Assembly: GCA_031394795.1 (NCBI GenBank)
Contig: JANNUB010000347.1
Location: 1-41,756, forward strand
Length of the DNA: 41,756 nucleotides
Origin: Ignavibacteriota bacterium
Lineage (GTDB): Bacteria > Bacteroidota > Ignavibacteria > UBA10030 > UBA6906
Direction of reading: 5' to 3'
Under the pieces are notes generated by a model. That model was not told where the DNA came from, ran no database searches, and saw nothing but the letters and a program-made list of their open reading frames with translations. A program made the position numbers and the translations under genes. This document shows, one piece after another, positions 586-23,026 of the stretch (within the stretch, counting starts at the first letter, position 1; each line of letters starts with the position of its first letter).

Positions 586-1956
586 ATGACACGACGTCTC
601 ACCATCTTTTTGCTTGCAAGCATGCTGACGTGGACATTCCTGCTCGGCAGTGTTGCTTCGGCACAGATCTTACCCGACGGTTTCGATTCAACCAATATCA
701 GATCGATCTGGAAATTCCTTGATCCTCGGGGCGGCTGTTCCGTTGTCAAGGATTCTGTGTCTCCGACTTCCGAGCGGCTAAAATTTATTGTTCCAGCAGG
801 ACTTTCGCGCGATCCGTATCCGTACTCGGGCTTCCCGCCAAATAGAACGGCGAGACTCGTTCAAAAAGTTGGACCTCTCGGGAATTTTGCAGTGCTGGTG
901 AAGTTCGATTCAGTAATGAACAGCATGTACCAGATCAAAGGAATTGAAGCAATCGAGGACGATAGTTCGTTCATCCGGTGTGAAGTCTACTGCGATTCAA
1001 CAGATACTGCAGGTCATCCAGGGCGTACCTTGCGATTGAACGCATACCTGGCCTCCGTTGTTAATGGCAGTGTCAACCAATCTGTGTTGCCACTCTCTTT
1101 GCGCCCCGACACAACGCGCACGATCTGGCTGCGACTTGATCGCATTAACGACAATTGGACACAACGATATTCTACAAACGGAATCAGTTGGACGATAGCG
1201 AACGCCATAATCCAGGCTATCCCCATTGACTCGATCGGTATACACGTGGCGGTTACTGATCCCGCGAACACTGCTAGTGGGACCAATGCTCCGGCGTTCA
1301 CGGCGTACATTGATTCCTTTGGCGTCGGAAATCCGAACGATCTGCCGGTCCAGCTTTCCAGTTTCTCAGCGGTTTTGCAGAGCAACAGGCTTGTCCGGCT
1401 TGACTGGTCAACAGCAACGGAAACGAACAACTATGGATTTGATGTTCAAAAGTCCCTTGGGAATACGGAGAACTTCCAAACGATCCCCGGTAGCTTTGTC
1501 CCCGGCAACGGAACCACTATCGAACCTCACCAGTATTTTTACGTTGATAACTCGACATCGCAAGGTGACTGGTACTATCGTCTGAAACAGATGGATCTCG
1601 ACGGTTCATTCAATTTTACCGAACCCATTCAGGTCAGCATACTCTCGGGCGTCGAAGACAAATCTTTGCCGACTGCTTTTGCACTGGAGCAGAACTATCC
1701 AAATCCGTTTAACCCGACAACAGAGATCAGATATCAGATATCAGAGGTCAGAGGTCAGAGGTCAGAGGCAAGCCGCGTTGCGTTGAAGGTGTATGATATG
1801 TTGGGTCGAGAAGTCGCGACACTGGTGAACGAAGTGAAGCAACCGGGAACATACTCGATACAATTTGATGCATCGCAACTGACGAGCGGTGTTTACATCT
1901 ACAAGCTCAGCTCGGCTGGACAGTCGTTCACGCGGAAGATGACTGTGATGAAATAA
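586..1956 (+). CDS. secreted jelly-roll (ConA/LamG-like flavour) protein with ~100-aa pre-CTD module and T9SS type-A C-terminal sorting domain
   Basis: ATG with GAGGT about 8 nt upstream. Signal-like N-terminus MTRRLTIFLLASMLTWTFLLGSVASA. Beta-rich body (DPRGG, FIRCEVY, WLRLDR). Pre-CTD module LPVQLSSF..ETNNYGFDVQKS..YYRLKQMDLDG. CTD EQNYPNPFNPTT .. SGVYIYKL .. TRKMTVMK. Colinear paralog of 2020-3342. Confidence 0.85.
   Translation: MTRRLTIFLLASMLTWTFLLGSVASAQILPDGFDSTNIRSIWKFLDPRGGCSVVKDSVSPTSERLKFIVPAGLSRDPYPYSGFPPNRTARLVQKVGPLGNFAVLVKFDSVMNSMYQIKGIEAIEDDSSFIRCEVYCDSTDTAGHPGRTLRLNAYLASVVNGSVNQSVLPLSLRPDTTRTIWLRLDRINDNWTQRYSTNGISWTIANAIIQAIPIDSIGIHVAVTDPANTASGTNAPAFTAYIDSFGVGNPNDLPVQLSSFSAVLQSNRLVRLDWSTATETNNYGFDVQKSLGNTENFQTIPGSFVPGNGTTIEPHQYFYVDNSTSQGDWYYRLKQMDLDGSFNFTEPIQVSILSGVEDKSLPTAFALEQNYPNPFNPTTEIRYQISEVRGQRSEASRVALKVYDMLGREVATLVNEVKQPGTYSIQFDASQLTSGVYIYKLSSAGQSFTRKMTVMK
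1721..1769. repeat. heptanucleotide tandem repeat (CAGARRT) x7 inside the CTD of ORF 586-1956
   Basis: Read directly: cagagat cagatat cagatat cagaggt cagaggt cagaggt cagaggc. It encodes ..EIRYQISEVRGQRSEA.. immediately after NPFNPTT. Confidence 0.95.
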
Positions 1957-2019
1957 GGAACCGCGGGGGGCGGTGAGGAAATCCATAATCGTTCACACTT
2001 GCTACTGTAGGAGGAAACC

Positions 2020-3342
2020 ATGCAACAACAAAAATCTCTGTTCGTCTTCACGCTCGCGTGCGCAGCGCTGCTCGCGAGTTCCGGTTCGGCACAGGGCATA
2101 CGACAAGATGAGTTTAACGGGTTAGGGCTTGACAATTCCGTTTGGCGCTTTGCCGATCCGCGTGGCGGTTGCACACAAGACGTATCCGGATCGGAGGCGC
2201 GCATTATCATTCCCTCGGGATTATCCCGCGACCCTGTGCTCACCAGCCAAGGGGGCAACAGGGCGCCGCGCATTGTTCAACAGGTTGCCAATCCAGTAAG
2301 TGGAGACGTCGGCGACTTTAAGGTCTATGCAAAATTTAATGGGATCGAAAACAGACAGTACCACATTCAAGGTATCATGGCGATGCAAAATGATACAACC
2401 TTTATCCGTTGCGAGATCTATAGCGCCGGTACACAATTGTACTGGCTTTTGTACGCTATTCAAAATAACACATACGTAAGCCAACACACAAGTCCGATCC
2501 CTGGTTCGGCTCTCGGAAACACGCCGCTCTACGTAAGGCTCGATCGAACGGGCAACGTATTTACTCAGTACTATGCCATTGGTACATCCACAACCTGGAT
2601 AAAGACAGACACCACCAGCTTTACGATGAGAGTTGATTCCATGGGTGTGTACGGGGCTACGTCTGACTCCGTTCAGCCGCCTCGTGTTCCCGAAATTCAT
2701 GCTCCTGCGTTTACTGGACTCATAGACTATTTCAGAACCGTAGACCCGCTTCCCATCCAGCTTGCGAGCTTCACTGCCACGCTGCAAAGCAACAATCTCG
2801 TGCGGCTCAATTGGACGACGATGACAGAAACAAACAACTATGGCTTTGAAGTTCAGAAGTCGCTCGGCGGTACGCAGGATTTCCAAACACTCCAGGGCGG
2901 TTTCATTCCCGGACATGGAACAACGGTCGAGCCGCGTCACTATAGTTATGTTGATGGTTCGACCTCGCCGGGCAATTGGTACTACCGTTTGAAGCAAATT
3001 GACCTCGATGGAACGATTAGCTACATTGAGCCTGTTCAAGTAACGGTGTTGACGGGTGTTGATGAGAAATCGCTGCCAGCAGCGTTCGCGCTCGAGCAGA
3101 ATTATCCGAATCCGTTTAACCCGGCGACCGTCATAACGTTTGCAGTGCCCGCAGCAGGTCAGGTGCGGCTGGAGGTCTTCAATGTCATCGGGCAGAAGGT
3201 TGCAACGGTGTTTGATGGAGTGAAAGAAGCGGGAGAGCACAAGCATGAGTTCGCTGCCGCTGATCTTACGAGCGGAGTGTATATCTACAAACTCACAGCC
3301 GGTGGACAGTCGTTCACGCGGAAGATGACAGTAATGAAATAG
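2020..3342 (+). CDS. secreted jelly-roll protein, tandem paralog of 586-1956, with pre-CTD module and T9SS CTD
   Basis: ATG preceded by AGGAGG (gtaggaggaaaccATG). Signal-like MQQQKSLFVFTLACAALLASSGSAQG. Shared blocks with the upstream gene (DPRGGC, IPSGLSRDP, FIRCEIY, RLDR). Pre-CTD module PIQLASFTA..ETNNYGFEVQKS..YYRLKQIDLDG. CTD EQNYPNPFNPAT .. SGVYIYKL .. TRKMTVMK. Confidence 0.85.
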   Translation: MQQQKSLFVFTLACAALLASSGSAQGIRQDEFNGLGLDNSVWRFADPRGGCTQDVSGSEARIIIPSGLSRDPVLTSQGGNRAPRIVQQVANPVSGDVGDFKVYAKFNGIENRQYHIQGIMAMQNDTTFIRCEIYSAGTQLYWLLYAIQNNTYVSQHTSPIPGSALGNTPLYVRLDRTGNVFTQYYAIGTSTTWIKTDTTSFTMRVDSMGVYGATSDSVQPPRVPEIHAPAFTGLIDYFRTVDPLPIQLASFTATLQSNNLVRLNWTTMTETNNYGFEVQKSLGGTQDFQTLQGGFIPGHGTTVEPRHYSYVDGSTSPGNWYYRLKQIDLDGTISYIEPVQVTVLTGVDEKSLPAAFALEQNYPNPFNPATVITFAVPAAGQVRLEVFNVIGQKVATVFDGVKEAGEHKHEFAAADLTSGVYIYKLTAGGQSFTRKMTVMK

Positions 3343-3365
3343 AGATCATTCTTCGCTGACATGGA

Positions 3366-3398
3366 AAGCCTCGTCCACTGACGGGGCTTTTGTTTCTT
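3366..3398 (+). terminator. rho-independent terminator after 2020-3342
   Basis: AGCCTCGTC cact GACGGGGCT (9-bp stem, one G.U pair) followed by TTTTGTTTCTT. Confidence 0.7.
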
Positions 3399-3504
3399 GC
3401 GCCGAGCCGCAAGAACCGGATCCCATGGTGAGAGTCATGAAGACTCGGAGAAAGCGTCCTGATCTCTAAGCAATCGCGATGTTCATTGAAACGGGAGTCC
3501 AGCA

Positions 3505-5127
3505 ATGATAAAACATTTTTCAGTAATCATCACGCTGACGTGCCTCTTAGAAGTCATGATAGCAGCGCCGACTATTACGGTGTGGTATGGCAACAATCAA
3601 TCATTCGGGCAGCGAGGAAATCCACAAACGGCTGTCAACATCTTGGGCAACGTCTCTGATCCGAGCGGCATTCAAAGTCTCTCGTACGCTCTCAACGGCG
3701 GATCATCCATCAATCTTTCGCGCGGTCCAGATACGCGCAGGCTTCTTCGTTCCGGCGATTTCAATATCGACATATTCACATCGAATCTTAACAATGGTTC
3801 AAATACGATTGTTATCACTGCAATAAACAGCTCTAACGAAACATCAACGGCGAACGTGGTTGTTCAATATACGCCAGGTAACACATGGGCTCTTCCGTAC
3901 TCCGTTGATTGGAGTTCCGCTGGCAGCATCCAGAGCGTCGCTCAAGTCGTCGACGGAGACTGGACACTGAACAATGGGAAGGTCCGGCCGAGGTATTTGG
4001 GATACGATCGGTTGGTCGCGATTGGCGACAAGACGTGGACGGACTATGAAGTTACAGTGCCCATTACTCTCTATAGCCTTGACACGAGTGGTTTCAATGG
4101 CGTGAGTCAAACACCTGGTGTTGGACTGTTGTTCAGATGGACAGGACATACCGACGATCCGGTCTCAGGTCAGCAACCGAAAACCGGCTTCCTCCCCTTG
4201 GGTGCGATTGGATGGTATAGCTGGGATTATGGCAACACCGGCGGTGTGAGATTGAAGCTTGTGGGCAACAACCTCAATACCATGCAGGAAGACAACAGCG
4301 GCTTTAGGCTCATGTGGGGCGTAACGTATATCTTCAAGATGCGTGTTGAAACTATTCCGGGCCTAGGCGCCGCGTACAAATTCAAGGTGTGGCAGGCCGG
4401 ACAATCCGAGCCATCGGCATGGACTCTGCAAGGACAACAATCTTTGAGTGACCCACAAAACGGTTGCGTCTGCCTACTCTCCCATCATGTCGACGCGGAA
4501 TTCGGCAATGTCACCATCACTCCGATTACCGCGACGCCGGTTCAGCTTTCCAGTTTCACTGCGCAAGTGATGAGCAACAATCTCGTCCGTCTTGACTGGA
4601 CAACTGCTTCCGAAACGAATAACTACGGTTTTGAAGTGCAGAAGTCATTCAACACGACGAACAACTTCTCGACAATCCCTCGCAGCTTCGTTGCCGGAAA
4701 TGGAACCACAACCGAGCCGCAATACTACAGTTGGATCGATTCGGCGGCAACAGCCGGGAATTGGTACTATCGCCTGAAGCAAATGGACCTCGATGGCACA
4801 ACAGTGTACACGGAGCCCGCGCGCGTGAGTGTTCTGACGGGCGTTCGCGGCGGGGAGGTCCCCGGAGACTTTGCGCTTCAACAGAACTATCCGAACCCAT
4901 TCAACCCCACGACGAAGATGTCATTTGTCATTGGTCATTCGTCATTAGCAAGTCTGAAGGTGTTTGATGTGTTGGGAAGAGAAGTCGAGACACTGGTGAA
5001 TGAAGTGAAAGCGCCCGGCATGCATGACGTGACGTTCAATGCGGAGAGACTTCCGAGCGGCGTATATGTTTACAGGCTCACTGCAGGTGGGAAATCAGCC
5101 AGTCGCAGAATGCTCCTGATGAAATGA
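3505..5127 (+). CDS. secreted Ig-like + ConA-like jelly-roll protein with pre-CTD module and T9SS CTD
   Basis: Signal-like MIKHFSVIITLTCLLEVMIAAP. The N-terminal ~340 aa are colinear with 5201-6892 (PTITVWYG.NQSFGQ.GNPQTA.NILGNVSDP.GIQSLSY, VVDG.WTL, WTDYEVTVPIT, LLFRWTGHTD, YIFKMRVETIPG, LLSHHVDAEFGNVTITP). Pre-CTD module PVQLSSFTA..ETNNYGFEVQKS..YYRLKQMDLDG follows, then CTD QQNYPNPFNPTT .. SGVYVYRL .. SRRMLLMK. Confidence 0.85.
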   Translation: MIKHFSVIITLTCLLEVMIAAPTITVWYGNNQSFGQRGNPQTAVNILGNVSDPSGIQSLSYALNGGSSINLSRGPDTRRLLRSGDFNIDIFTSNLNNGSNTIVITAINSSNETSTANVVVQYTPGNTWALPYSVDWSSAGSIQSVAQVVDGDWTLNNGKVRPRYLGYDRLVAIGDKTWTDYEVTVPITLYSLDTSGFNGVSQTPGVGLLFRWTGHTDDPVSGQQPKTGFLPLGAIGWYSWDYGNTGGVRLKLVGNNLNTMQEDNSGFRLMWGVTYIFKMRVETIPGLGAAYKFKVWQAGQSEPSAWTLQGQQSLSDPQNGCVCLLSHHVDAEFGNVTITPITATPVQLSSFTAQVMSNNLVRLDWTTASETNNYGFEVQKSFNTTNNFSTIPRSFVAGNGTTTEPQYYSWIDSAATAGNWYYRLKQMDLDGTTVYTEPARVSVLTGVRGGEVPGDFALQQNYPNPFNPTTKMSFVIGHSSLASLKVFDVLGREVETLVNEVKAPGMHDVTFNAERLPSGVYVYRLTAGGKSASRRMLLMK

Positions 5128-5164
5128 ATCTCCTCTCCAAAGGAGAAGGAGAGATTCTTTTTGT
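5127..5164 (+). terminator. rho-independent terminator after 3505-5127
   Basis: aaTCTCCTCTCC aaa GGAGAaGGAGAgatt (bulged stem) followed by CTTTTTGTG. Starts at the stop codon. Confidence 0.6.
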
Positions 5165-5200
5165 GCTATGTTGCAGAAGCAGGAATGTGAAGAGGAATCT

Positions 5201-6892
5201 ATGACGTTGCGAACAACCTTCTCCCGGACCGTACTGTTCGCTGTAATCGCACTCGTAGCGCATAGCGTTAACGCCGCGCCGACCATCACCGTCTGGTATG
5301 GCGCCAACCAATCCTTTGGTCAACTCGGCAATCCGCAAACCGCCATCAATATTTTGGGCAACGTGTCGGACCCAAACGGCATCCAGAGCCTCTCGTACAC
5401 ACTGAATGGCGGCTCACCCGTCAATCTTTCGCGCGGTCCGGATAGTCGGAGATTACTTCGTCAGGGCGATTTCAATATCGATATCTACACCACGGCGTTG
5501 AACAACGGAACGAATACCATTGTCATCACGGCAAGGAATAATCTCAACGAGACTTCAACGGAAACCGTAACTGTGCAATACACCGCGGGACAAGTGTGGC
5601 CGCACAACTATTCAATCAACTGGAATTCCGCAACATCAATTAACAGTGTAGCGCAAGTTGTGGATGGACACTGGACTCTGCAGAGCGGGATCGTCAAGCC
5701 GACGTATCTTGGATATGACCGTATCGTTGCAATCGGCAGTACCACGTGGACGGATTATGAAGTCACGGTCCCCATTACCATGCGCGGGATTGACCCGGGG
5801 GGCTTCGGATTCCCAGGTGGAAGTCCCGGCGTTGGACTGCTGTTCCGGTGGACCGGACATACCGATAACCCCATTTCGGGAGCGCAACCCAAAACCGGCT
5901 ATCTTCCCTTCGGAGCGATTGCGTGGTACGCATGGGAAAACAATAATCCTTCGGGCACTCCGCGTCTGAAGCTTGTCGGCAACAACCTCAACACCATGCA
6001 GGAAGACTTCAGCGGATTGACGCTGTCGTATAACGTGACGTACATTTTCAAAATGCGCGTCGAGACGATTCCCGGACAGGGCGGTGTGTACAAATTCAAG
6101 GTGTGGCAGCAGGGACAACCCGAGCCTTCCACCTGGCGCTTGCAAGGGCAAAGCGCGCTCACCGATCCTCAAAGCGGATCGCCCTGTCTCCTGTCGCATC
6201 ATGTCGATGCGGAGTTCGGTAACGTCACGATCACTCCGCTCGCGTACGTCAACATGGGCCTCAAAGCATTTCTTGAAGGACCGTACAACTCCTCGACTGC
6301 AACCATGCGCACCGACTTGCAGCCTGTGCTGCCGGCTGTGCAGCCATACACAACGTCGCCCTGGAGTTACGTCGGAGTGGAAACCATCGCCACGATTCCT
6401 TCGGGTGCTGTGGACTGGGTGCTGCTCGAGCTTCGCACCGGCACCGCATCTTCAACGCGGGTGGCGACGCGTGCCGCGCTCATCAAAAGCAACGGGGTTA
6501 TCGTCGAGCTTGATGGGAGCAGCCCCGTCACGTTCGGCGGGATCTCGGCAGGAAATTACTACGTCGTCATTCGTCATCGCAATCATCTTCCGATCATGAG
6601 CGCATCGCCGCTGAGCCTCACGACGAGCGCATCGCTGTATGATTTCACCATGTCGCAGTCGCAAGCGTACGGAGTATCGCCAATGAAGGAGATTGTTTCA
6701 GGAGTCTTCGGTATGATTGCTGGTGATGCAAACTCGACGAACATTATTACGGCTTCCGACGCGAACGGGGTTTTCGTTGATCTCAATGCAACGAACTACA
6801 ACGCCAACGATGCCAACATGAACCGACTCGTGACGGATGCGGATGCGAACGTTGTATTCCAGAACATCAACCGGTCGGGTCAACTGCCGTAG
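5201..6892 (+). CDS. CTD-less paralog of 3505-5127: same Ig-like + jelly-roll N-terminus, different C-terminal module (FLEGPY..DWVLLELR..HRNHLPIMS domain plus dockerin-like D-x-N loops)
   Basis: The ORF is open from 5168. ATG 5201 (MTLRTTFSRTVLFAVIALVAHSVNA) gives a plausible signal peptide and has GAGGA upstream. After ..AEFGNVTITP the sequence lacks the pre-CTD module and CTD. Instead it carries KAFLEGPYNS..VDWVLLELR..GNYYVVIRHRNHLPIMS, a domain I recall from the C-termini of large uncharacterised Bacteroidota surface proteins. Two loops follow, GDANSTNIITASDANGVF and NDANMNRLVTDADANVVF. Confidence 0.8.
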   Translation: MTLRTTFSRTVLFAVIALVAHSVNAAPTITVWYGANQSFGQLGNPQTAINILGNVSDPNGIQSLSYTLNGGSPVNLSRGPDSRRLLRQGDFNIDIYTTALNNGTNTIVITARNNLNETSTETVTVQYTAGQVWPHNYSINWNSATSINSVAQVVDGHWTLQSGIVKPTYLGYDRIVAIGSTTWTDYEVTVPITMRGIDPGGFGFPGGSPGVGLLFRWTGHTDNPISGAQPKTGYLPFGAIAWYAWENNNPSGTPRLKLVGNNLNTMQEDFSGLTLSYNVTYIFKMRVETIPGQGGVYKFKVWQQGQPEPSTWRLQGQSALTDPQSGSPCLLSHHVDAEFGNVTITPLAYVNMGLKAFLEGPYNSSTATMRTDLQPVLPAVQPYTTSPWSYVGVETIATIPSGAVDWVLLELRTGTASSTRVATRAALIKSNGVIVELDGSSPVTFGGISAGNYYVVIRHRNHLPIMSASPLSLTTSASLYDFTMSQSQAYGVSPMKEIVSGVFGMIAGDANSTNIITASDANGVFVDLNATNYNANDANMNRLVTDADANVVFQNINRSGQLP

Positions 6893-6918
6893 GTTTTCAC
6901 TATCGCAATTGGATTATC

Positions 6919-9813
6919 GTGGTAGCTTCATTTGCAGTATTCGGCTTTCTGGCGTTGCAGACACCATTCTGGACGTTTCTTTCGAGCAGCACTGGCGCCC
7001 TGCCCGTGCCAAGCGGCGGCAATCAACAAACAGCCAGCCTTATTCTCGACATTGACAAGAACGGCGTAGATGACTTTGTTCTCGCCGATAGGTCGGGAAC
7101 AACGTCGCTTGTTTGGTTTCGACGCACAAGCGCCGGGTGGACGCAGTATATCATTGACAACACGCATCTCAACATCGAGGCAGGCGGAGCATACCACGAT
7201 ATTGACAACGACGGCGATCTCGATATCGTCATGGGAGGCGACTATCAGAGCAATCAAATCTGGTGGTGGGAAAATCCTTTCCCAACCTACGGAGTTTCCA
7301 CGCCGTGGACGCGGAGACTGATCAAAGACGGTGGCTCGAATACTCATCACGATCAAATGTTCGGCGATTTCGACGGCAACGGCAAAGCGGAACTCGTCTT
7401 CTGGAATCAAGGGTCTAACACGTTGAACAAAGCGGACATTCCCGCGAATCCGCTTGTGACATCGCCCTGGACACTCACGCCAATCTTCACCGGCAACGCA
7501 ATGGAAGGATTGGCGGCAATTGACATGGACAATGACGGCAAGCTCGATATCGTCGGCGGCGGGCGATGGTTCAAACATGTTTCCGGAACGACCTACTCTG
7601 TCGAAGTCATTGACGACGCTCAGCGTTTCACGCGTGCGGCGGCGGGACAATTGAAGATCGGGGGCAGACCCGAAGTGGTGTTCGCGCCCGGCGACGCGGA
7701 CGGACGGATGAAAGTGTACGAGTGGAACGGCAGCGCGTGGAACGGAACGGACTTGCTCGGTCTCGACGTCATTCACGGCCATTCGATGCAAATCGAAGAT
7801 ATCAATCGCGATGGATGGCTCGATATCTTCAACGCGGAGATGCGGCTTGGCGGCGGCAACACCACCTCCAAGATCCGCATCTTGTACGGCAATGGGAACG
7901 GCGGCTTCACGCTCAGCAACGTAGCGACTGGAAGCAATGATCACGAATCGCGTCTCGGCGATCTGGACGGCGACGGCGACTTTGATATTCTGAGCAAGCC
8001 GTACGACTGGAACTCTCCGCGCATCGATGTGTATCTCCAGAATGGTTCGGACGTGCTTCCTCCCTATTCGCTCAATGTTTGGCGCCGCCACGTCATTGAT
8101 CCCAATAAACCGTGGCGCGCCGTGTTCATCTCCGCTGCGGATATGGATAATGATGGAAGAAAAGATGTGATCACCGGGGGATGGTGGTACAAAAATCCCG
8201 GTGATACGACAGCGAATTGGGCGCGCAACACGATCGGGCTGCCGATGAAGAACATGGCATGCGTTTATGATTTCGATAACGACGGGGCGATGGATGTGCT
8301 CGGAACGAAAGGCGAAGGAGCCGAGACGAACGCGGAATTTGTTTGGGCGAAGAACAATGGAAGCGGATCATTCACGATTCTCACAAACGTCCCAAACGGG
8401 GAAGGGGACTTTTTGCAGGGTGTTGCAGCTGCACGGTTTCAACCCGGCAATACGCTCGAGGTCGCGCTCTCATGGCACGAAGCCAGCCGCGGCATACAAA
8501 TGCTGACCGTCCCCGCAAACCCGGCGACCACTGCGTGGACATGGAGAAGAATCTCGACCGTATCGCAAGACGAACAGCTCAGCGCGTTCGACGCGGAACG
8601 CAACGGCACGGTTGACCTGATGATGGGAACGAAATGGCTGCGCAACGACGGAACCGCGTGGACCGACTACACCCTCAACACAACCTCCGGCGATCCCGAC
8701 CGCAACAGGATAGCGGACATCAATCGCGATGGAAGGCTCGACGTCGTCGTCGGCTTCGAAGCGATTAGCGTCGCGGGAAAACTCGCGTGGTATGAGCAGC
8801 CCTCCTTGCCGACGGGAACGTGGGCGGAGCACGTTATTTCAACAACGGCCATCAGTCCAATGAGTCTTGATCTCGCCGACATGGATCACGACGGCGACAT
8901 TGACGTCGTCGTTGGCGAGCACAATACGAACGATCCAGCGAACGCGCGGCTGCTGCTCTTCAAGAATACCGACGGCGCGGGCGGCTCGTGGAGTGAGAGC
9001 ATCATCCACACCGGCGATGAGCATCACGATGGCGCGCAGACTGTTGATCTGGACAACGACGGCGACCTCGACATCATCTCTATTGGATGGAACAACGCGG
9101 CTGTGGTCTGGTATGAAAACAAAACCACGAATCCTGTCCTGCTGCCGATTCAATTGGCAATCTTCACAGCCCATGCGCTGAACCGGCAGATGGTGCTCGT
9201 GGAGTGGGCGACGGTTTCCGAAACAAGCAACTACGGATTTTTCGTGCAAAGAAAAACCTCAGCCGAGGGGCAGTTCACCGATCTTCCGAACAGTTTTGTT
9301 GCCGGGCATGGAACGACGACGGAACCGCATTATTATTCCTTCGTTGATTCGAATGCGTCCGGAATTCTCCTCTTCTATCGCTTGAGACAAGTGGATCTTG
9401 ACGGGACAGAGCATTTTACGGATCCCGTTCAGGTGAGCCGGACAACAGACGTTGATGACGAAAATGCACCCCGCGAGTTCTCATTGTCACAGAATTATCC
9501 CAACCCGTTCAACCCAACAACGAATTTGTCATTTGTCATTGGTCATTCGTCATTCGTGTCGTTGAAAGTGTTCGATGTGCTGGGGCGGAAGGTGGCAACG
9601 CTGGTCAATGAAGTGAAAGAGCCGGGAGAGTACGCTGTGCAATTTGACGCCAGTTCCGCCTTGCCGGGCGCCTCTGGCGTATATTTCTACCGGCTCGTCG
9701 CCCACCAAACAGACGGCGGGCAGGCCCACCAAACAGACGGTCGAAGACTCGACTCGTCGAGCGGGCAAGCCGGAAATTTTTCCTCAACAAGAAAGATGCT
9801 GATCATCCGGTAG
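6919..9813 (+). CDS. FG-GAP/VCBS-repeat beta-propeller protein with pre-CTD module and T9SS CTD
   Basis: GTG start. Ten Ca-loop-like repeats: DIDNDGDLDIV, DFDGNGKAELV, DMDNDGKLDIV, DINRDGWLDIF, DLDGDGDFDIL, DMDNDGRKDVI, DFDNDGAMDVL, DINRDGRLDVV, DMDHDGDIDVV, DLDNDGDLDII. Pre-CTD module LPIQLAIFTA..ETSNYGFFVQRK..FYRLRQVDLDG. CTD SQNYPNPFNPTT .. SGVYFYRL .. TRKMLIIR. Confidence 0.85.
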   Translation: MVASFAVFGFLALQTPFWTFLSSSTGALPVPSGGNQQTASLILDIDKNGVDDFVLADRSGTTSLVWFRRTSAGWTQYIIDNTHLNIEAGGAYHDIDNDGDLDIVMGGDYQSNQIWWWENPFPTYGVSTPWTRRLIKDGGSNTHHDQMFGDFDGNGKAELVFWNQGSNTLNKADIPANPLVTSPWTLTPIFTGNAMEGLAAIDMDNDGKLDIVGGGRWFKHVSGTTYSVEVIDDAQRFTRAAAGQLKIGGRPEVVFAPGDADGRMKVYEWNGSAWNGTDLLGLDVIHGHSMQIEDINRDGWLDIFNAEMRLGGGNTTSKIRILYGNGNGGFTLSNVATGSNDHESRLGDLDGDGDFDILSKPYDWNSPRIDVYLQNGSDVLPPYSLNVWRRHVIDPNKPWRAVFISAADMDNDGRKDVITGGWWYKNPGDTTANWARNTIGLPMKNMACVYDFDNDGAMDVLGTKGEGAETNAEFVWAKNNGSGSFTILTNVPNGEGDFLQGVAAARFQPGNTLEVALSWHEASRGIQMLTVPANPATTAWTWRRISTVSQDEQLSAFDAERNGTVDLMMGTKWLRNDGTAWTDYTLNTTSGDPDRNRIADINRDGRLDVVVGFEAISVAGKLAWYEQPSLPTGTWAEHVISTTAISPMSLDLADMDHDGDIDVVVGEHNTNDPANARLLLFKNTDGAGGSWSESIIHTGDEHHDGAQTVDLDNDGDLDIISIGWNNAAVVWYENKTTNPVLLPIQLAIFTAHALNRQMVLVEWATVSETSNYGFFVQRKTSAEGQFTDLPNSFVAGHGTTTEPHYYSFVDSNASGILLFYRLRQVDLDGTEHFTDPVQVSRTTDVDDENAPREFSLSQNYPNPFNPTTNLSFVIGHSSFVSLKVFDVLGRKVATLVNEVKEPGEYAVQFDASSALPGASGVYFYRLVAHQTDGGQAHQTDGRRLDSSSGQAGNFSSTRKMLIIR
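9700..9740. repeat. 24-bp-period direct duplication (gcccaccaaacagacgg x2) within a 69-nt insertion in the CTD of 6919-9813
   Basis: The 17-mer gcccaccaaacagacgg occurs at 9700-9716 and again at 9724-9740, encoding AHQTDGGQ / AHQTDGRR. Confidence 0.9.
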
Positions 9814-9814
9814 C

Positions 9815-11005
9815 ATGACACCGTACACGAACACAAACGCATCCTGCCCGGCGTGCGGCAGCCGCGGGATGTTCATCTTCTACTACGCAGCCAACGTTCC
9901 CGTCCACAGCGTGCTCTTGATGCAGACGCGCGAAGAGGCTCTCGGATATCCGAAGGGACGTATCGAGCTTGGGTTTTGCAACGCGTGTGGTTTCATCAGC
10001 AACACTACATTCGACGCGCAGCTCCATGAGTACTCGTCGCGGTACGAAGCAACGCAAGGCTACTCCGACACCTTCAACAAATTCCACACAGCGCTCGCGC
10101 AGCGGTTGATCGAACGACACGTCCTGCAGGGTAAAACGATCATCGAAATCGGCGGCGACAAAGGGGACTTCCTGACGATGCTCTGCGAGATGGGAAACAA
10201 CCGCGGCATCGGCGTTGACCCCGCGTACGTCCCGGAGCGCAATCCCTCCAACGAGCGCGTGCAGTTCATCAAGGATGTGTATTCCGAGAAATACACCGAC
10301 CTGCAAGGCGATTTCATCGTTTGTAAAATGACGCTCGAACATATTCATCCCGTGGCGGAGTTCGTTGGCATGGTGCGCCGCTCGATCGGCGCAAAGATGG
10401 ACGCGACAATTTTCTTTCAGATTCCGAATGTAACATATGTGCTCCGTGACCTCGCCTTCTGGGACATTTACTACGAGCACTGTTCCTATTTCACCAAAGG
10501 CTCGCTCGCGCGGCTGTTCCGGCGCTGCGGCTTCGATGTCCTGTGCCTTTCAACTGAGTACGACGATCAGTATCTTACCATTGAAGCAAAGCCGTCGCGT
10601 GGAATGGGCAACGGCACGCACGCCGGGGAAGACGATCTCGACGAAGTCCGCTTACTTGTGCATCGCTTCTTGGAAGAATACCCAAAACACCTGCGCCGCT
10701 GGGCCAAAACGATGGAGAACATTCAACAGGAACAGAAGAAAGCCATCATCTGGGGCGCTGGCTCCAAAGGCGTCGCGTTCTTTACGGCGCTCGGCATCTC
10801 AGCCGACGTCATGCCGTACGCCGTTGATATTAACCCACACAAACGTGGAACGTTCATGGCCGGCAGTGGACAAGAGATTGTGATGCCGGATTTCCTGAAG
10901 GAGTATCGCCCCGACGTCGTGATCGTCATGAACCCCATCTACCGGCAGGAGATTCACAACGAGCTGACCGCCCGCGGCATCGCCGCCGAGCTGATCACGA
11001 TGTAG
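9815..11005 (+). CDS. class I SAM-dependent methyltransferase, Zn-ribbon + Rossmann + C-methyltransferase-type C-terminal domain (divergent paralog A)
   Basis: ATG lies 1 nt after the upstream stop. CPACGS ... CNACGF (CxxC..CxxC). SAM motif IIEIGGDKGDFL. LEHIHP. Second nucleotide-fold domain IIWGAGSKGVAFF .. DINPHKRG .. DVVIVMNPIYRQEI. Same architecture as sugar C-methyltransferases but clearly divergent from the canonical tail at 1-573. Confidence 0.8.
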   Translation: MTPYTNTNASCPACGSRGMFIFYYAANVPVHSVLLMQTREEALGYPKGRIELGFCNACGFISNTTFDAQLHEYSSRYEATQGYSDTFNKFHTALAQRLIERHVLQGKTIIEIGGDKGDFLTMLCEMGNNRGIGVDPAYVPERNPSNERVQFIKDVYSEKYTDLQGDFIVCKMTLEHIHPVAEFVGMVRRSIGAKMDATIFFQIPNVTYVLRDLAFWDIYYEHCSYFTKGSLARLFRRCGFDVLCLSTEYDDQYLTIEAKPSRGMGNGTHAGEDDLDEVRLLVHRFLEEYPKHLRRWAKTMENIQQEQKKAIIWGAGSKGVAFFTALGISADVMPYAVDINPHKRGTFMAGSGQEIVMPDFLKEYRPDVVIVMNPIYRQEIHNELTARGIAAELITM

Positions 11006-11009
11006 ATCA

Positions 11010-12677
11010 ATGACCGATTCCCAGTTGAGCAACGATCCCCGCGCGACCACACCTCGTGAAGCGTACATGCAGCACATCGCGAACGCGTTCGTTGCTCTCA
11101 ACTTTCTTCTCATCCTTGGCGTCACGCTTTTCCCGTTCAACTTCACTCCCACAGGCGTCCAAGAGCGATTGAGCGCGATGCTCTCAGGGCGTCTCAGGCT
11201 GCGCGGCATGCTCGACGACATCATCACGAACATCATCCTCTTTATCCCGCTTGGCTACGCGCTCGCGGCATTGGCGCGCCACAGCAGACACAGTTTCCTC
11301 AGCGCCTTGGTCGTTGGCACAATCACAGGGGGAGCATTCTCACTCTTTGTGGAGCTCTTGCAGTTGTATCTCCCGTTCCGGTACTCCTCGTTTGTCGATG
11401 TCACAACAAACTCGCTTGGCACCGCGAGCGGGATAATATTCCATGAGCTTATCGGCGGTACGATCACGCGCCATTTTCGCGCCGCCGTATCCGGAAGGGA
11501 CAGTCGTAAGAGCGCTGCCTGGTTGGCATCCGCGTATGTACTCCAGCTCGGCTTCATTATCACCGTTTCAGGACCGCTGATTTTTTCGCTGCGATTCTAC
11601 GACTGGGATGTGGGCGCGCCACTCGCGCTCGGCAACGACCCTACCGGAACCCATCCCTGGCAGGGAACCATTCAGCGCTTTGCCCTCGCCAATGCGGGCA
11701 TCAGCGAATCCGACGCGCTCGCGAGCTTCCGGTCCGATTCGCTTGTGCATACAAATCCTGCGACGGTCATTGCGGATTATGTTTTTGACGGAGGCTCGCC
11801 CTATCGCGACCGCAGCGGACGTTTGCCCCCTCTTGAGTCTGTCGGGCGCTTCTCTGCCGGAGTTCGTGGCGGAGTTCGTGGCGGAGTTCGTGGCGCGACC
11901 ATCACAGACAGTCACTGGCTGCAAACGGGCGGAGATGCTCACGCGATCGCCTCGGCGTTGAACGCACGGGATCATTTCACTTTCTTCCTCACACTCAGCG
12001 CATCCTCGAACGAACAGACCGGGTTCATCGCGTGCTACGGTCAGAGTGCCGGAGAAGTGAACCTGACACTCTCGCAGCAAGGCAGCGATCTCGGCATCGG
12101 CTTCCGAGCGATGACCACGGGACTTGCAGCAGACATGCCATCATTCGTGGTAAGCGATGTGTTCACCGATAGCCGTGTCCATACGCTCATCATTTCGTTT
12201 TCCAACTTCGAGCTGAACGTGTACGTTGACTCGCCATCGCGCTTGCACAACCTCACGCTCGGCCCCGGACTCGGGATGTTCAACCGTTTTCTTCCGTCCC
12301 ATCACACACTCGATATCACCTCGCGGTTTGCGCATCTCAACGAATGGTTGTTTCTGAGCTTCGCGTTCATTCCGCTTGGCTGTCTGCTTGGTTTCGCGCT
12401 GCAAGGCTTGCGCCACAGCGGGTGGGCTGCGCGATTCGTTGCCGTCGCGGGAGTTGTCATCCCGCCGGTTGTGCTCGAGCGTCTCTCCATGGAGATCGCC
12501 CGGCGGGAGATGAACGCGAACACCATCGTTATCGGCGTCTGTCTCATGGCGGCGTCCTGCGCGGCTGTTTTGTTCGTAAGCGCATGGCGGCTCAAAGCGG
12601 CGTCGGGCAAGAACAGAAATTCGGTTGACGAGAGAGAACCACTTTTCAATAGTCGGGAATTTCACGGCAACGTTTGA
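11010..12677 (+). CDS. VanZ-family membrane protein fused to a LamG/ConA-like jelly-roll domain and C-terminal TM segments
   Basis: Starts 4 nt after the upstream stop. N-terminal TM helices carry the VanZ hallmark ELLQLYLPFRYSSFVDVTTNSLGTASG (E..Q...P.R..S..D...N..G). The central ~300 aa are beta-rich (HFTFFLTLSAS..GFIACYG..VNLTLSQQGSDLGIGF..HTLIISFSNFELNVYVD), typical of LamG-like jelly rolls. The C-terminal hydrophobic segments are FLSFAFIPLGCLLGFAL, VAVAGVVIPPVVL and IVIGVCLMAASCAAVLFV. Confidence 0.75.
   Translation: MTDSQLSNDPRATTPREAYMQHIANAFVALNFLLILGVTLFPFNFTPTGVQERLSAMLSGRLRLRGMLDDIITNIILFIPLGYALAALARHSRHSFLSALVVGTITGGAFSLFVELLQLYLPFRYSSFVDVTTNSLGTASGIIFHELIGGTITRHFRAAVSGRDSRKSAAWLASAYVLQLGFIITVSGPLIFSLRFYDWDVGAPLALGNDPTGTHPWQGTIQRFALANAGISESDALASFRSDSLVHTNPATVIADYVFDGGSPYRDRSGRLPPLESVGRFSAGVRGGVRGGVRGATITDSHWLQTGGDAHAIASALNARDHFTFFLTLSASSNEQTGFIACYGQSAGEVNLTLSQQGSDLGIGFRAMTTGLAADMPSFVVSDVFTDSRVHTLIISFSNFELNVYVDSPSRLHNLTLGPGLGMFNRFLPSHHTLDITSRFAHLNEWLFLSFAFIPLGCLLGFALQGLRHSGWAARFVAVAGVVIPPVVLERLSMEIARREMNANTIVIGVCLMAASCAAVLFVSAWRLKAASGKNRNSVDEREPLFNSREFHGNV
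11859..11894. repeat. 12-bp tandem repeat (ggagttcgtggc) x3, in frame (GVRG x3) in the VanZ/LamG gene
   Basis: Read directly at 11859-11870, 11871-11882 and 11883-11894. Encodes SAGVRGGVRGGVRGA. Confidence 0.95.
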
Positions 12678-12681
12678 TCGC

Positions 12682-13833
12682 ATGGCATCGCTGGAGAGAT
12701 ATTGCCCCGTATGTTCGTCCGCGGGAATTGAATTCTTCTTTGAGATGAACGGCCTACCGGTCTTCTGCAACGTGCTGCACACGTCGCGGGAAGATGCGCT
12801 CAACGCGCCGCGCGGCGACATGAAGCTCGGCTTCTGCCGCGCGTGCGGACACATCTACAACTACGCGTTCGATCCCGCTCTGATGAACTACACCCAGTCG
12901 TACGAAAACTCCCTCCACTTCTCGCCGGTCTTTCAGCGATACGCGGAAGAACTCGCTGCCAATCTGATTCAGCGATACAATCTCCGCAACAAAAGCATCG
13001 TCGAGATCGGATGCGGCAAAGGGGACTTTCTCAAACTGCTCTGCGATGAGGGGGAAAACGAAGGAACCGGATTCGATGCGAGCTACCAGCCCGAGTTGTT
13101 GCAGCGGCGCGAACGCCTCCGAGTTATTCAGGACTCTTACTCCGCAAAGTATGCGCATCTCGCGACCGACTTTGTGGTGTGCCGACACGTTCTCGAGCAC
13201 ATCGCATCGCCACGGGAATTTGTCGAAAACATTCGCGGCGCGCTCGGCAGCCAGCCGGCGCTCTACTTTGAAGTGCCGAACGCTCTCTGGACTCTGCGGG
13301 ATTTGGGCGTGTGGGATTTGATCTACGAGCATTGTTCATACTTCACGCCCCACTCGCTCGTCCGTCTTTTCACCGAAGCGGGATTCGGCGTTCTCAATAT
13401 CGCCGAGCGTTACAATGGACAATTTCTCGGCATCGAGCTTACGCCCGGCGTTTCTGCCGTAACGCAAGGCGCCAGTGTTGAAGGCGATTCGCTCGCCAAA
13501 CTTGTTCTCGCGTTTGCAGAAAACTATCGCTCAAGAGTCGAATCATGGCAAAAGCGATTCGCGCAGATCGGGTGGGAGGGTAAGCGCATCGTCGTTTGGG
13601 GAGGCGGCTCGAAGGGTGTAACATTCTTGAACGTGATGCGAGCCGGCATCGAGTTTATGATAGACATCAATCCGCGTAAACAGGGAATGTACGTTGCCGG
13701 CACCGGACAGCAGATCGTTTCTCCGGAATTTCTCCGAACATACGCCCCTGATCTCGTCATTGTCATGAACCCCATCTACATGGATGAAATCCGGACGATG
13801 CTGCCCACGCACTCCGAGATTGCCGTCGCGTAA
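12682..13833 (+). CDS. class I SAM-dependent methyltransferase, Zn-ribbon C-methyltransferase-type (divergent paralog B)
   Basis: The ORF is open from 12625, but ATG 12682 (MASLERYCPVCSS) lies 4 nt after the upstream stop at 12677. CPVCSS ... CRACGH. IVEIGCGKGDFL. LEHIASP. VVWGGGSKGVTFL .. DINPRKQG .. DLVIVMNPIYMDEI. Colinear with 9815-11005. Confidence 0.8.
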   Translation: MASLERYCPVCSSAGIEFFFEMNGLPVFCNVLHTSREDALNAPRGDMKLGFCRACGHIYNYAFDPALMNYTQSYENSLHFSPVFQRYAEELAANLIQRYNLRNKSIVEIGCGKGDFLKLLCDEGENEGTGFDASYQPELLQRRERLRVIQDSYSAKYAHLATDFVVCRHVLEHIASPREFVENIRGALGSQPALYFEVPNALWTLRDLGVWDLIYEHCSYFTPHSLVRLFTEAGFGVLNIAERYNGQFLGIELTPGVSAVTQGASVEGDSLAKLVLAFAENYRSRVESWQKRFAQIGWEGKRIVVWGGGSKGVTFLNVMRAGIEFMIDINPRKQGMYVAGTGQQIVSPEFLRTYAPDLVIVMNPIYMDEIRTMLPTHSEIAVA

Positions 13834-13846
13834 CGCCCCAGATTGC

Positions 13847-14989
13847 TCACTTCATCGCTTCTTCCAAATCCGCAATGATATCATCCACATCTTCGATGCC
13901 GACGGAGATTCTCACCAAGCCGTCGGTAACCCCGATGCGTGCTCGCTGATCCGGAGGAATCGCTGCGTGTGTCATCGTCGCGGGATGCGTGATGATGGTT
14001 TCAACGCCTCCTAAACTTTCCGCCAACGCGCAGAGTTTGACTCGCTTCAGAAAGTTTTTTGCAGCACCCAAACTCCCAAGCTCTAACGAGATCATTCCGC
14101 CGAAACCGCGCATCTGTTTCTTCGCAAGCTTGTATTGCGGATGTTCGGAAAGTCCGGGGTAATACACTCTCTTCACCTTCCGCTGCTTCCTCAGCCACCG
14201 CGCGACGCGCATCGCATTTGCGCAGTGCTGTTCCATCCGAACCGCAAGAGTCTTTGTGCCGCGCAGGCAAAGCCACGCATCGAACGGACTGAGAATTCCG
14301 CCGACCGCTTTTTGAAGGAACCTCAGTTTCTCAGCGACCGCGTCGCTGTTCGTAACAATGAATCCGCCAAGCATGTCGCTGTGTCCGTTCAAGTACTTCG
14401 TCAAACTGTGCACGACAATGTCGAAACCGTAATGGATCGGCTGCTGCAAATACGGCGTCGCGAACGTGTTGTCAACGACGGAAATCAGTTTATGCTTCTT
14501 CGCGATCTTCGCCGCGCCGCGCAAATCCGTAATTTCCATCGTCGGGTTCGTCGGCGTTTCGATGAAAAGCATTTTCGTGTTCGTCTTCAGCGCTCGCTCG
14601 ATGTTCATCAAGTCCGTCGTGTCAACGAAATCGAATTGCAAGCCGTATTCTTCCCACACCATCTTCGCGATGCGATACGTCCCGCCGTACACATTCCACG
14701 ACATCACAACATGGTCGCCGGGTTTGAGCAAATGCATGATTGCATCCACCGCCGCCGTGCCCGAACCGAATGCCATGCCGTGCTTCCCATTCTCCAGCGC
14801 GGCGATGTTTAGCTCAAGTGCCGTACGCGTCGGATTTGAAACGCGGGAGTATTCGTAGCCTTTGTTCTTGCCGAGTTCCTCTTGCACATACGTTGAAGTA
14901 AGAAACACAGGCGTCATAATCGCGCCCGTCGTTGGTTCAGCAGGTTGACCTGCGTGAATTGCTTTGGTGGAAAAACCGTGATGTTTCAT
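13847..14989 (-). CDS. PLP-dependent trans-sulfuration enzyme (cystathionine gamma-lyase / gamma-synthase family)
   Basis: Full-length match to the Cys/Met-metabolism PLP family: AIHAG, SNPTR, FETPTNP-like IETPTNPTM, DNTFATPYLQ, and the lysine motif HSLTKYLNGHSDMLGG. Proximity to cystathionine beta-synthase favours gamma-lyase (reverse trans-sulfuration), but that sub-call is inference. Confidence 0.85.
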   Translation of the reverse strand: MKHHGFSTKAIHAGQPAEPTTGAIMTPVFLTSTYVQEELGKNKGYEYSRVSNPTRTALELNIAALENGKHGMAFGSGTAAVDAIMHLLKPGDHVVMSWNVYGGTYRIAKMVWEEYGLQFDFVDTTDLMNIERALKTNTKMLFIETPTNPTMEITDLRGAAKIAKKHKLISVVDNTFATPYLQQPIHYGFDIVVHSLTKYLNGHSDMLGGFIVTNSDAVAEKLRFLQKAVGGILSPFDAWLCLRGTKTLAVRMEQHCANAMRVARWLRKQRKVKRVYYPGLSEHPQYKLAKKQMRGFGGMISLELGSLGAAKNFLKRVKLCALAESLGGVETIITHPATMTHAAIPPDQRARIGVTDGLVRISVGIEDVDDIIADLEEAMK

Positions 14990-21727: not shown

Positions 21728-23026
21728 ATGATTGCGCGTTACACCCGTCCGGCAATGGGCAAAATCTGGGACGACGATAACAAGTTCGGCATTTGGCTTG
21801 AGATCGAATTGCTCGCGTGCGAAGCACAGGCGGAGCTTGGCGTCATTCCAAAAGACGCGGTGCGGCTCATGCGGGAACGGGCGTCATTCAACGTTGCGCG
21901 CATTGACGAGATTGAGCGGGAGGTGAAGCACGACGTGATCGCATTCCTGACGAACGTTGGCGAGCATATCGGACCCGAAGCCCGTTTCATGCATGTAGGC
22001 ATGACCTCGTCGGATGTTCTCGACACGTGCCTCGCCGTGCAGATGAAACAGAGCGGTGAGATGCTGCTCGACGATTTGACCAAACTGAACGACGTTCTTG
22101 CCAGGCGTGCGAAGGAATTCAAATACACCATCATGGTCGGCAGGACGCACGGGATTCATGCAGAGCCGACGACATTCGGGCTGAAACTCGCGCTCTGGTA
22201 CGATGAGACGCGACGCAACATCGCTCGGCTTCAGTCGGCGATCGAGAGGATTTCTGTCGGGCAAATTTCCGGCGCGGTCGGGACGTTCGAGCATTTGAGT
22301 CCGAAGGTTGAAGAATATGTTTGTCGGAAGTTAGGATTGAAGCCCGCGCCCGTGTCAACACAAATTCTTCAACGCGATCGTCATGCCGAGTTCATGAGTG
22401 TCCTTGCGCTGGTGGGAAGTTCGCTGGAAAAATTTTCGACGGAGATTCGTCATCTCCAAAAAACGGAAGTGCTTGAGGCGGAAGAATATTTTTCGAAAGG
22501 TCAGAAAGGTTCTTCCGCGATGCCGCACAAGCGCAACCCGATTACGTGCGAACGCATTGCAGGATTGTCGAGAGTGCTGCGAGGAAATGCAATTGCGGCG
22601 ATGGAAAATGTCGCGCTCTGGCATGAGCGGGACATTACCCATTCGTCCGTTGAACGCGTCGTGATTCCTGATAGCTGTATTCTTCTCGACTACACGCTCA
22701 ATCTTATGACTGATGTCTTGGACAAGTTGCTCGTCTATCCTGAAAACATGATGAAGAACTTAGAGCGTACGCACGGATTAGTTTTCTCGCAATCGGTGTT
22801 GCTTGCGTTGACGAAGAAAGAAATGAAGCGCGAAGACGCGTACAGCGTTGTTCAATCCTGTGCATTGGAAACGTGGCAAACAGGAAAGAACTTCAAGGAC
22901 CTCTTGCTTGCGAATGCCGAAATCGTTCGCGTGCTTGGGAAAGAAGCGATTGAAGCGTTGTTTGATTTGAAGAAGAGTATTCGGAATGTGGATTACATTT
23001 TTGAGAAAGTAGGACTAGCAGGATGA
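21728..23026 (+). CDS. purB: adenylosuccinate lyase
   Basis: MIARYTRPAMGKIWDDDNKF, the fumarate-lyase signature region GSSAMPHKRNP, 432 aa. Colinear with PurB as I remember it. Confidence 0.92.
   Translation: MIARYTRPAMGKIWDDDNKFGIWLEIELLACEAQAELGVIPKDAVRLMRERASFNVARIDEIEREVKHDVIAFLTNVGEHIGPEARFMHVGMTSSDVLDTCLAVQMKQSGEMLLDDLTKLNDVLARRAKEFKYTIMVGRTHGIHAEPTTFGLKLALWYDETRRNIARLQSAIERISVGQISGAVGTFEHLSPKVEEYVCRKLGLKPAPVSTQILQRDRHAEFMSVLALVGSSLEKFSTEIRHLQKTEVLEAEEYFSKGQKGSSAMPHKRNPITCERIAGLSRVLRGNAIAAMENVALWHERDITHSSVERVVIPDSCILLDYTLNLMTDVLDKLLVYPENMMKNLERTHGLVFSQSVLLALTKKEMKREDAYSVVQSCALETWQTGKNFKDLLLANAEIVRVLGKEAIEALFDLKKSIRNVDYIFEKVGLAG

Follow-up and report, generated by a model that had tools for sequence, protein, structure and literature searches.

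VanZ proteins have been placed within the lipocone superfamily, with flipped lipid-linked head groups as their predicted targets (Burroughs et al. 2025, PMC12419801). The same study ties VanZ-1 genes to exopolysaccharide and nucleoside diphosphate (NDP)-sugar genes and lists "Lipocone + TM + lectin domain" (TM, transmembrane) as an architecture, which it takes up under predicted signaling systems. Elsewhere in the superfamily, YfiM of Escherichia coli is a Ca2+-dependent lipid-linked-oligosaccharide pyrophosphatase, and hydrolysis of Lipid II by VanZ has been proposed (bioRxiv 10.64898/2026.09.16.752124); the VanZ-family protein Llp1 of yeast is a dolichol-linked oligosaccharide pyrophosphatase according to the authors' 2025 work, as cited in that preprint. 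In the part of the literature covered here, we found no activity shown for a VanZ-1-type enzyme and nothing relevant on VanZ and LamG together. The other point of comparison is the group of NDP-hexose 3-C-methyltransferases represented by TylCIII, TcaB9, and KijD1 (PDB 4rv9, 3ndi, and 5t64). Here, we describe a stretch of 41,756 nt from an Ignavibacteriota bacterium (contig JANNUB010000347.1 of assembly GCA_031394795.1; hereafter the window) that hosts a tightly spaced trio on the (+) strand, i.e., two paralogous zinc-ribbon methyltransferase genes, MT1 and MT2, on either side of a gene for a VanZ-1-type membrane protein with a LamG-like domain (VanZ-LamG). Since methylases appear in PMC12419801 only as miscellaneous neighbors, the pairing of VanZ-1 with MT1/MT2-type genes is not described there.

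The balance of the evidence tips modestly toward the view that this trio is the distal end of a locus for a cytidine diphosphate (CDP)-hexose-derived, multiply methylated surface glycan, with its products serving a compartmentalized pathway rather than forming a self-contained machine. In such a pathway, a CDP-activated hexose (probably a 4-keto-6-deoxy sugar) would be made in the cytoplasm and methylated there by a canonical sugar C-methyltransferase (C-MT), MT1, and MT2, after which glycosyltransferases would build it into a polyprenyl-diphosphate-linked glycan that would be flipped across the membrane. On the periplasmic side, the VanZ-1/LamG enzyme would bind the glycan via its lectin domain and cleave or transfer it at the diphosphate, a step that could release the lipid carrier or serve its quality control, or be a terminal transfer. 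The 1–4 nt junctions would then reflect co-expression of steps in one pathway, and the VanZ gene would have been inserted into a pre-existing MT1-MT2 tandem in the Ignavibacteria/Chlorobi/Bacteroidota lineage. What the sequences show is the conservation, gene contexts, retained residues, and predicted topology set out below; we infer which substrates and chemistry are involved and in which direction the VanZ reaction runs.

Gene order in the window and in related loci

MT1 (positions 9815–11005, 396 aa), VanZ-LamG (11010–12677, 555 aa), and MT2 (12682–13833, 383 aa from the ATG at 12682) lie on the (+) strand and are separated by only a few nucleotides. The preceding FG-GAP cargo gene ends in a TAG codon at 9811–9813, 1 nt before the ATG of MT1 at 9815; the stop codon of MT1 (11003–11005) is followed after 4 nt by the ATG of VanZ-LamG at 11010, and the stop codon of VanZ-LamG (12675–12677) is likewise followed after 4 nt by the ATG of MT2 at 12682. 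These gaps are the ones listed in an earlier note on this DNA. The MT2 frame also contains an in-frame TTG upstream, at 12625, which is the start given in the list of open reading frames (ORFs). The trio stands in an array of genes on one strand, comprising the tail of a canonical C-MT gene (1–573), five secreted-protein genes, and the trio itself, with gaps of 1–162 nt. The gene after MT2, for a Cys/Met pyridoxal phosphate (PLP) enzyme (13847–14989), lies convergently on the other strand, so that the trio closes the co-directional array.

At the other end, the window cuts the canonical TylCIII/TcaB9-type C-MT gene, of which the 3′ part remains on the (+) strand (Methyltransf_14, 162 bits over profile positions 18–160 of 160), and the array begins before the window. 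The full-length gene, with Methyltransf_13 and Methyltransf_14, occupies the same place in L003/L089 and L010–L013 (L-numbers denote the loci compared with the window). The earlier note had found the genes expected beside sugar methyltransferases to be absent, which is true within the 41.7-kb window, but they only seem missing because the window starts inside the C-MT gene. In relatives, the order is a family 2 glycosyltransferase (GT2), glucose-1-phosphate cytidylyltransferase, a short-chain dehydrogenase/reductase (SDR) of the epimerase/dehydratase kind, C-MT, cargo of the type IX secretion system (T9SS), MT1, VanZ-LamG, and MT2. L089, for instance, carries on one strand GT2, the nucleotidyltransferase, SDR, canonical C-MT, two cargo genes, MT1, VanZ, MT2, and a major facilitator superfamily (MFS) gene. 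The cytidylyltransferase scored above the TIGR02623 equivalog cutoff in three loci (353–363 versus 300 bits), i.e., L089 from the Fibrobacteres–Chlorobi–Bacteroidetes (FCB) group, L094, and the cyanobacterial L014. The locus resembles CDP-hexose O-antigen-type cassettes in that a TIGR02623-equivalog first enzyme precedes, on the same strand, an SDR and enzymes that modify sugars. It differs from them in that the SDR is not of the TIGR02622 type, three methyltransferases replace the 3,6-dideoxy enzymes, and T9SS cargo genes are interleaved.

The trio was found with the same order and orthology in 10 further loci (L001, L003/L089, L009–L013, L029, and L090), all from metagenome-assembled genomes labeled Ignavibacteria, Chlorobi, or Bacteroidota, and partial copies were found in L002, L004, and L024. 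In these relatives, the trio is therefore conserved as the unit that the earlier note had supposed it to be. Among the loci compared, it was not conserved outside this lineage. Elsewhere, the two methyltransferase genes usually form an adjacent tandem with no VanZ gene, as in L007, L008, and L092–L094; in L005 (Roseiflexus), MT1-type and MT2-type genes lie two genes apart. Glycosyltransferases or sugar-activation genes adjoin the VanZ-less tandems of L007, L008, L092, and L093; in L007 (Anaerolineae), the tandem is followed by GT4, nucleotidyltransferase, GHMP kinase, and GT2 genes, and in L008, L092, and L093, it lies among T9SS cargo genes. The most compact arrangement is that of L094 (GCA_900174565.1, 4505–10179), where cytidylyltransferase, SDR, canonical C-MT, MT1-type, and MT2-type genes form a cassette; the flanks covered, 9 kb on each side, had no called ketoreductase or glycosyltransferase gene. 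L094 is the cleanest system for finding the sugar made by the three methyltransferases.

VanZ-LamG genes, in turn, occur with one methyltransferase or none. In Cyanobacteria, the gene adjoins an MT1-type (L014 and L022) or an MT2-type gene (L015 and L016), and all four of these pairs lie inside NDP-sugar/glycosyltransferase clusters. In L014 (Leptolyngbyales), genes for a PhyH-like dioxygenase (3425–4348) and a flavin adenine dinucleotide (FAD)-dependent oxidoreductase (5649–6914) are interleaved with C-MT, MT1-type, and VanZ-LamG genes, a hint that the sugar may be tailored further by oxidation. The VanZ-LamG gene stands without methyltransferases in L017–L020, with unrelated neighbors in L017 and L018. 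The VanZ-less tandems and the solitary VanZ-LamG genes together imply that the membrane protein is an optional partner. Judged by gene order, the conserved core is the MT pair with the CDP-hexose genes, VanZ-LamG is a recurrent companion, and the position of its gene between the two methyltransferase genes is lineage specific. The reading of the bracketing as a fixed layout, made in the earlier note, finds no support in these loci.

The methyltransferase pair and the VanZ-LamG protein

Inspection of the translations revealed all of the methyltransferase motifs quoted in the earlier note. The zinc-ribbon cysteines are C11xxC14...C55xxC58 in MT1 and C8xxC11...C52xxC55 in MT2, the SAM (S-adenosylmethionine) motif reads EIGGDKGDF and EIGCGKGDF, respectively, and LEHI is present in both. 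The second-domain motifs are WGAGSKGVAFF and DINPHKRG in MT1 and WGGGSKGVTFL and DINPRKQG in MT2, with VIVMNPIY..EI common to the two proteins. Pfam matches comprised Methyltransf_23 (PF13489; 66.9 bits for MT1 and 90.0 bits for MT2) and Methyltransf_14 (PF08484; 60.6 and 48.4 bits, cutoff 23.5), the latter over profile positions 44–146 of 160 only. PF08421 gave no match in MT1 or MT2 at E ≤ 0.01, and precomputed annotation assigns the N-terminal domain of their homologs to PF22674 (C2185-like_N); a literature search on C2185, the name behind this Pfam domain, yielded nothing informative. Neither protein carries a signal peptide or export signal, and both are presumably soluble cytoplasmic enzymes.

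The identity between MT1 and MT2 is 44% over 374 residues, whereas the mean identity of their groups to canonical C-MTs is 20–21%, in agreement with the greater mutual similarity noted before. Both align over their full length with 4rv9 (E-values of 1e-15 and 6e-20), 5t64, and 3ndi. They share with TylCIII, TcaB9, and KijD1 the four-Cys zinc ribbon, the class I SAM domain, the Methyltransf_14 layout, and the nucleotidyltransferase and SDR neighbors. They differ from them in the PF22674 rather than PF08421 N-terminal domain, in a shorter C-terminus that lacks the ...GGKFIIPLP tail, and in forming two paralogous groups beside a canonical C-MT. We compared 14 MT1-type and 13 MT2-type sequences (those of the window included) with eight canonical C-MTs from the loci and a TcaB9 fragment. 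The catalytic set of TcaB9 addressed by mutant studies (PDB 4e2w–4e33), comprising Tyr76, His181, Glu224-His225, Asn177, and Tyr222, served as the reference. The equivalents of Tyr76, His181, Glu224, and His225 are invariant in 14/14 MT1-type and 13/13 MT2-type sequences.

In a neighbor-joining tree, the MT1-type and MT2-type sequences grouped together and split from the canonical C-MTs in 100/100 bootstraps, which places the paralogs outside any clade of known function. Support for monophyly of each paralog group was modest (71 and 38), in contrast to the strong joint split. Each group holds Chloroflexota, Cyanobacteria, and FCB sequences, indicating that the duplication is old. On this tree, MT1-type and MT2-type proteins are apparently two old orthologous groups within a sister clade of the sugar C-methyltransferases. 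MT2 homologs numbered 6,687 among 8,000 scored candidates, the best 120 at 52–65% identity; none of the homologs had a name beyond a generic one, and there was no NCBIfam equivalog for MT1 or MT2.

The middle protein consists of three parts, all encoded on the (+) strand. A VanZ lipocone core of helices (residues 15–160) with a fifth TM helix (TM5, 165–192) is encoded at 11052–11585, a LamG/ConA-like β-sandwich (195–437), predicted to be periplasmic, at 11592–12320, and three C-terminal TM helices (439–537) at 12324–12620. VanZ (PF04892) matched residues 33–145 with 50.7 bits (cutoff 30.1), and the hallmark E115..Q118...P122.R124..S127..D130...N134..G137 is intact; this hallmark and the C-terminal helices stand as first described. 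Among 30 aligned homologs, N74, E115, Q118, R124, and D130 are invariant, and N134 is kept in at least 90%. A word-index homology search with the middle protein gave no match, and a 30-sequence profile returned three LamG proteins only. Since the word index misses the VanZ-LamG family, an exhaustive HMMER search was needed; it revealed a large family that shares this architecture over the full length, with 4,024 cluster representatives at E ≤ 1e-3, of which 260 reached E ≤ 1e-30, and identities among the 150 matches listed were 24–40%.

The LamG-like domain spans ~240 residues (195–437) and not the ~300 proposed earlier. Laminin_G_3 (PF13385) remained below its gathering score (16.8 versus 27.6 bits, E = 0.0077) and covered residues 199–232 only, but the family profile matched PF13385-containing proteins with an E-value of 8e-28. 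Among the four Pfam families that the earlier note had named for searching, PF04892 and, in part, PF08484 were thus matched, PF08421 was not, and PF13385 stayed subthreshold. An AlphaFold2 (AF2) model (predicted local distance difference test [pLDDT] score of 87.7, predicted template modeling score [pTM] of 0.83) showed eight TM helices and a β-sandwich with strands across residues 205–435. Its local Foldseek matches were NEL, neurexin LNS, agrin LG, and SHBG (probability 0.77–0.99), and LG/LNS domains (0.92–0.99) were the only high-probability ones; a PDB sequence search also gave a weak NEL/NELL2 match. A whole-chain Foldseek search against PDB returned no significant full-length match, and the resistance-nodulation-division (RND) pumps in its top rows were dismissed as noise (TM-score 0.1).

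The density of Lys and Arg, averaged over the 30 homologs, was 0.18–0.42 per residue at the N-terminus, in loops 2–3, 4–5, and 6–7, and in the C-terminal tail, compared with 0.08–0.10 in loops 1–2 and 3–4, the LamG domain, and loop 7–8. Under the positive-inside rule, this alternation predicts that LamG and the ends of helices H2–H4 with the VanZ motif residues face the periplasm. The earlier note had envisaged a membrane-associated complex, with LamG binding a substrate on which the two methyltransferases act. With the domain modeled as periplasmic by charge statistics and AF2, and with the methyltransferases and SAM in the cytoplasm, LamG would be unable to hand a substrate to them.

The family profile aligns with VanZ-A of Tn1546 (plasmid NZ_KR047792.1) with an E-value of 4e-16. 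The two proteins share the four-helix core of VanZ-1, with N in H2 (N57 of VanZ-A corresponding to N74), ExxQ in H3 (E92xxQ95 to E115xxQ118), and DxxxN in H4 (D107xxxN111 to D130xxxN134). VanZ-1 proteins further share the link to exopolysaccharide/NDP-sugar genes and the fusion of lipocone, TM, and lectin parts. The H4 motif DxDDxxxN is kept in part, its upstream Asp positions being Ser-Ser; the first Asp of D104xxD107 in VanZ-A corresponds to S127. The middle protein also differs from VanZ-A in its length (555 versus 161 residues), which accommodates TM5, the LamG domain, and three more TM helices, and its gene does not lie in a glycopeptide-resistance operon. Llp1 and YfiM, whose published pyrophosphatase activity renders outdated the earlier statement that VanZ has no established mechanism, belong to the same superfamily. 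They are membrane enzymes with acidic motif residues at the membrane interface, and polyprenyl-diphosphate-linked glycan is a plausible substrate class. Both are Ca2+-dependent and use a KxxH...E...DxxxD set, with KxxH in H2 and DxxxD in H4 serving catalysis and Ca2+ binding, whereas the middle protein has Asn74 at the His position and Asn134 at the last Asp, and neither contains a lectin domain.

Weighing of the competing explanations

Several observations weigh against a surface-glycan pathway with a periplasmic VanZ-1/LamG step. On the enzymatic side, MT1 and MT2 are only ~20% identical to the characterized C-MTs; the N177 position of TcaB9 is replaced throughout (Met/His), and Y222, although present in MT1-type proteins, is always Ile in MT2-type proteins, so that another substrate, another methylated position, or even O- instead of C-methylation may apply. 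The SDR does not qualify as a CDP-glucose 4,6-dehydratase equivalog (TIGR02622), and the loci examined revealed no 4-ketoreductase, flippase, or polymerase. The topology of VanZ-LamG is a predicted one. The residues given for "VanZ" in the preprint (H87, E128, R137, D143, and D147) could not be placed on the 161-residue VanZ-A at any offset and fit the VanZ-2 motif (KxxH, DxxxD) instead; the characterized "VanZ" and the VanZ-A of resistance operons may therefore belong to different lipocone families. This misfit, together with Asn for His and DxxxN for DxxxD, makes hydrolase activity of a VanZ-1-type protein an extrapolation. Finally, the 1–4 nt junctions or overlaps kept in every trio locus could mean physical association.

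The last point is the basis of an explanation that we consider unlikely, in which MT1 and MT2 bind to VanZ-LamG at its cytoplasmic loops or tail and methylate a sugar that is already lipid-linked on the inner face, the same membrane protein processing the product outside, so that the stoichiometric gene layout would reflect a physical complex. The conserved junctions, the fact that, in two phyla, VanZ-LamG lies beside a gene of the MT1 or MT2 type, and the positively charged cytoplasmic loops and C-terminal tail, which could be docking sites, agree with such tethering. The predicted location of the LamG domain, on the membrane side opposite the methyltransferases, speaks against it and makes the complex as first proposed implausible. 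Moreover, MT1-MT2 pairs occur without a VanZ-LamG neighbor (L005, L007, L008, and L092–L094), VanZ-LamG genes occur without methyltransferases (L017–L020), and the methyltransferases keep the architecture of soluble NDP-sugar enzymes. It is also quite improbable, in our view, that the methyltransferases are not directed at sugars at all and instead methylate another molecule (the neighboring secreted proteins, a secondary metabolite, or the head group of a lipid, for example), with an indirect link to the sugar genes. Their distance from the canonical C-MTs (~20% identity, separate clade in 100/100 bootstraps), their generic names and lack of an NCBIfam equivalog, the replacement of N177 and Y222, and a conserved secreted protein domain that recurs beside the MT pair in three phyla would suit such a role. 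Opposed to it are the compact cassette that joins the pair to genes for glucose-1-phosphate cytidylyltransferase, an SDR, and a canonical C-MT, the recurrent glycosyltransferase neighbors, and the retention of the zinc ribbon and of the Y76, H181, and E224-H225 equivalents; the secreted proteins, in addition, are exported, while the methyltransferases are cytoplasmic.

For VanZ-LamG itself, the listing of its architecture under predicted signaling systems in PMC12419801 suggests a sensor or regulator, in which LamG would sense extracellular glycan and the lipocone would modulate lipid-carrier availability (corresponding, in Burroughs et al., to "lipid-associated signalling"), and the many solitary family members among unrelated neighbors (L017 and L018) would fit this. 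We regard such a function as very doubtful, given that the protein has no cytoplasmic signaling domain, only short loops and a ~30-residue tail, and that its gene lies within biosynthetic operons of two phyla; the invariance of N74, E115, Q118, R124, and D130 in the 30 homologs, with N134 in at least 90%, argues for catalysis. We thus retain the compartmentalized glycan pathway as the favored explanation of the trio. A more specific form of it is put forward tentatively, as one that we would not expect to hold in full: canonical C-MT, MT1, and MT2 would make an undescribed triply methylated CDP-hexose, VanZ-1/LamG would be a dedicated periplasmic release or transfer enzyme, and the glycan would be carried on, or handled by, secreted proteins with a conserved ~330-residue domain (see below). 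If so, a VanZ-1 protein would for the first time have a concrete role, that of proofreader or terminal transferase of a glycan, in a cross-phylum surface-glycan system so far unnamed.

The locus extends known themes and does not overturn current understanding. Beyond glycopeptide resistance, the roles of VanZ-1 proteins have so far been predicted only; here they become testable, since a lectin-fused member is genetically tied to a defined CDP-hexose pathway. It also draws attention to an uncharacterized sister clade of sugar C-methyltransferases with thousands of homologs, whose two paralogous groups travel together and whose products may comprise novel sugars, either branched or carrying several methyl groups.

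Secreted proteins and other features of the window

The five secreted-protein genes between the canonical C-MT gene and the trio lie on the (+) strand, and four of them encode a T9SS sorting domain. The first two T9SS cargo proteins, c1 (586–1956; Por_Secre_tail) and c2 (2020–3342), are paralogs with a weak DUF1349 (ConA-like) match. The third, c3 (3505–5127), has a Por_Secre_tail and an N-terminal conserved domain of ~330 residues, which is also found in c4 (5168–6892), a secreted protein with no Pfam match. The last, c5 (6919–9813), is an FG-GAP repeat cargo protein (FG-GAP_3, 166 bits; TIGR04183 sorting domain) with orthologs in L029 and L090. Orthologs of the genes at 586–9813, c1 included, occur in the trio loci L003/L089, L010–L013, L029, L090, and L001, indicating that the cargo genes are part of the conserved locus and not random insertions.

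The ~330-residue domain was located at 3505–4554 (c3) and 5219–6268 (c4) in the window and at 5559–6656 in L005, 11045–12013 in L016, and 3216–4271 in L008, which is likewise of the FCB group. It is 44–69% identical across the FCB, cyanobacterial (L016, Hyella), and Roseiflexus (L005) proteins encoded beside MT1/MT2-type genes and carries the motifs VAQVVDGHW, GYDR..IGD..W.DYEV, RW.GH.D, and HHVDA.FGNV. This highly conserved secreted domain thus tracks the MT pathway across three phyla (FCB, Cyanobacteria, and Chloroflexota). Profile comparison with PDB and scanning against Pfam returned only a weak Ig-like match at the N-terminus of the domain, and a model built from the two window paralogs only was unusable (pLDDT of 41).

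PADLOC gave no defense-system match for the trio or cargo proteins, scans for promoters and terminators revealed nothing above chance, and Rfam and tRNA scans were empty. A defense system or mobile element was ruled out, there being no such matches and a stable synteny with housekeeping neighbors.

Elsewhere in the window, a gene on the (−) strand (34516–41712) encodes a protein of 2,398 residues that combines ASH/HYDIN-type Ig domains and BNR/sortilin repeats with FlgD_ig at the C-terminal end. L089 has a giant gene of similar kind downstream of its trio, which shows that synteny reaches past the glycan locus. A gene for an AAA_16-type ATPase (23023–24225) is followed by an ORF of ~80 residues (24280–24520; MAKTITARVNDRVAKRLARESKEREKTQSQLVEWALEQF...) that has the look of a ribbon-helix-helix protein by eye. 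It lies in a stretch of lower GC content (0.47–0.48) with a strong AT skew.

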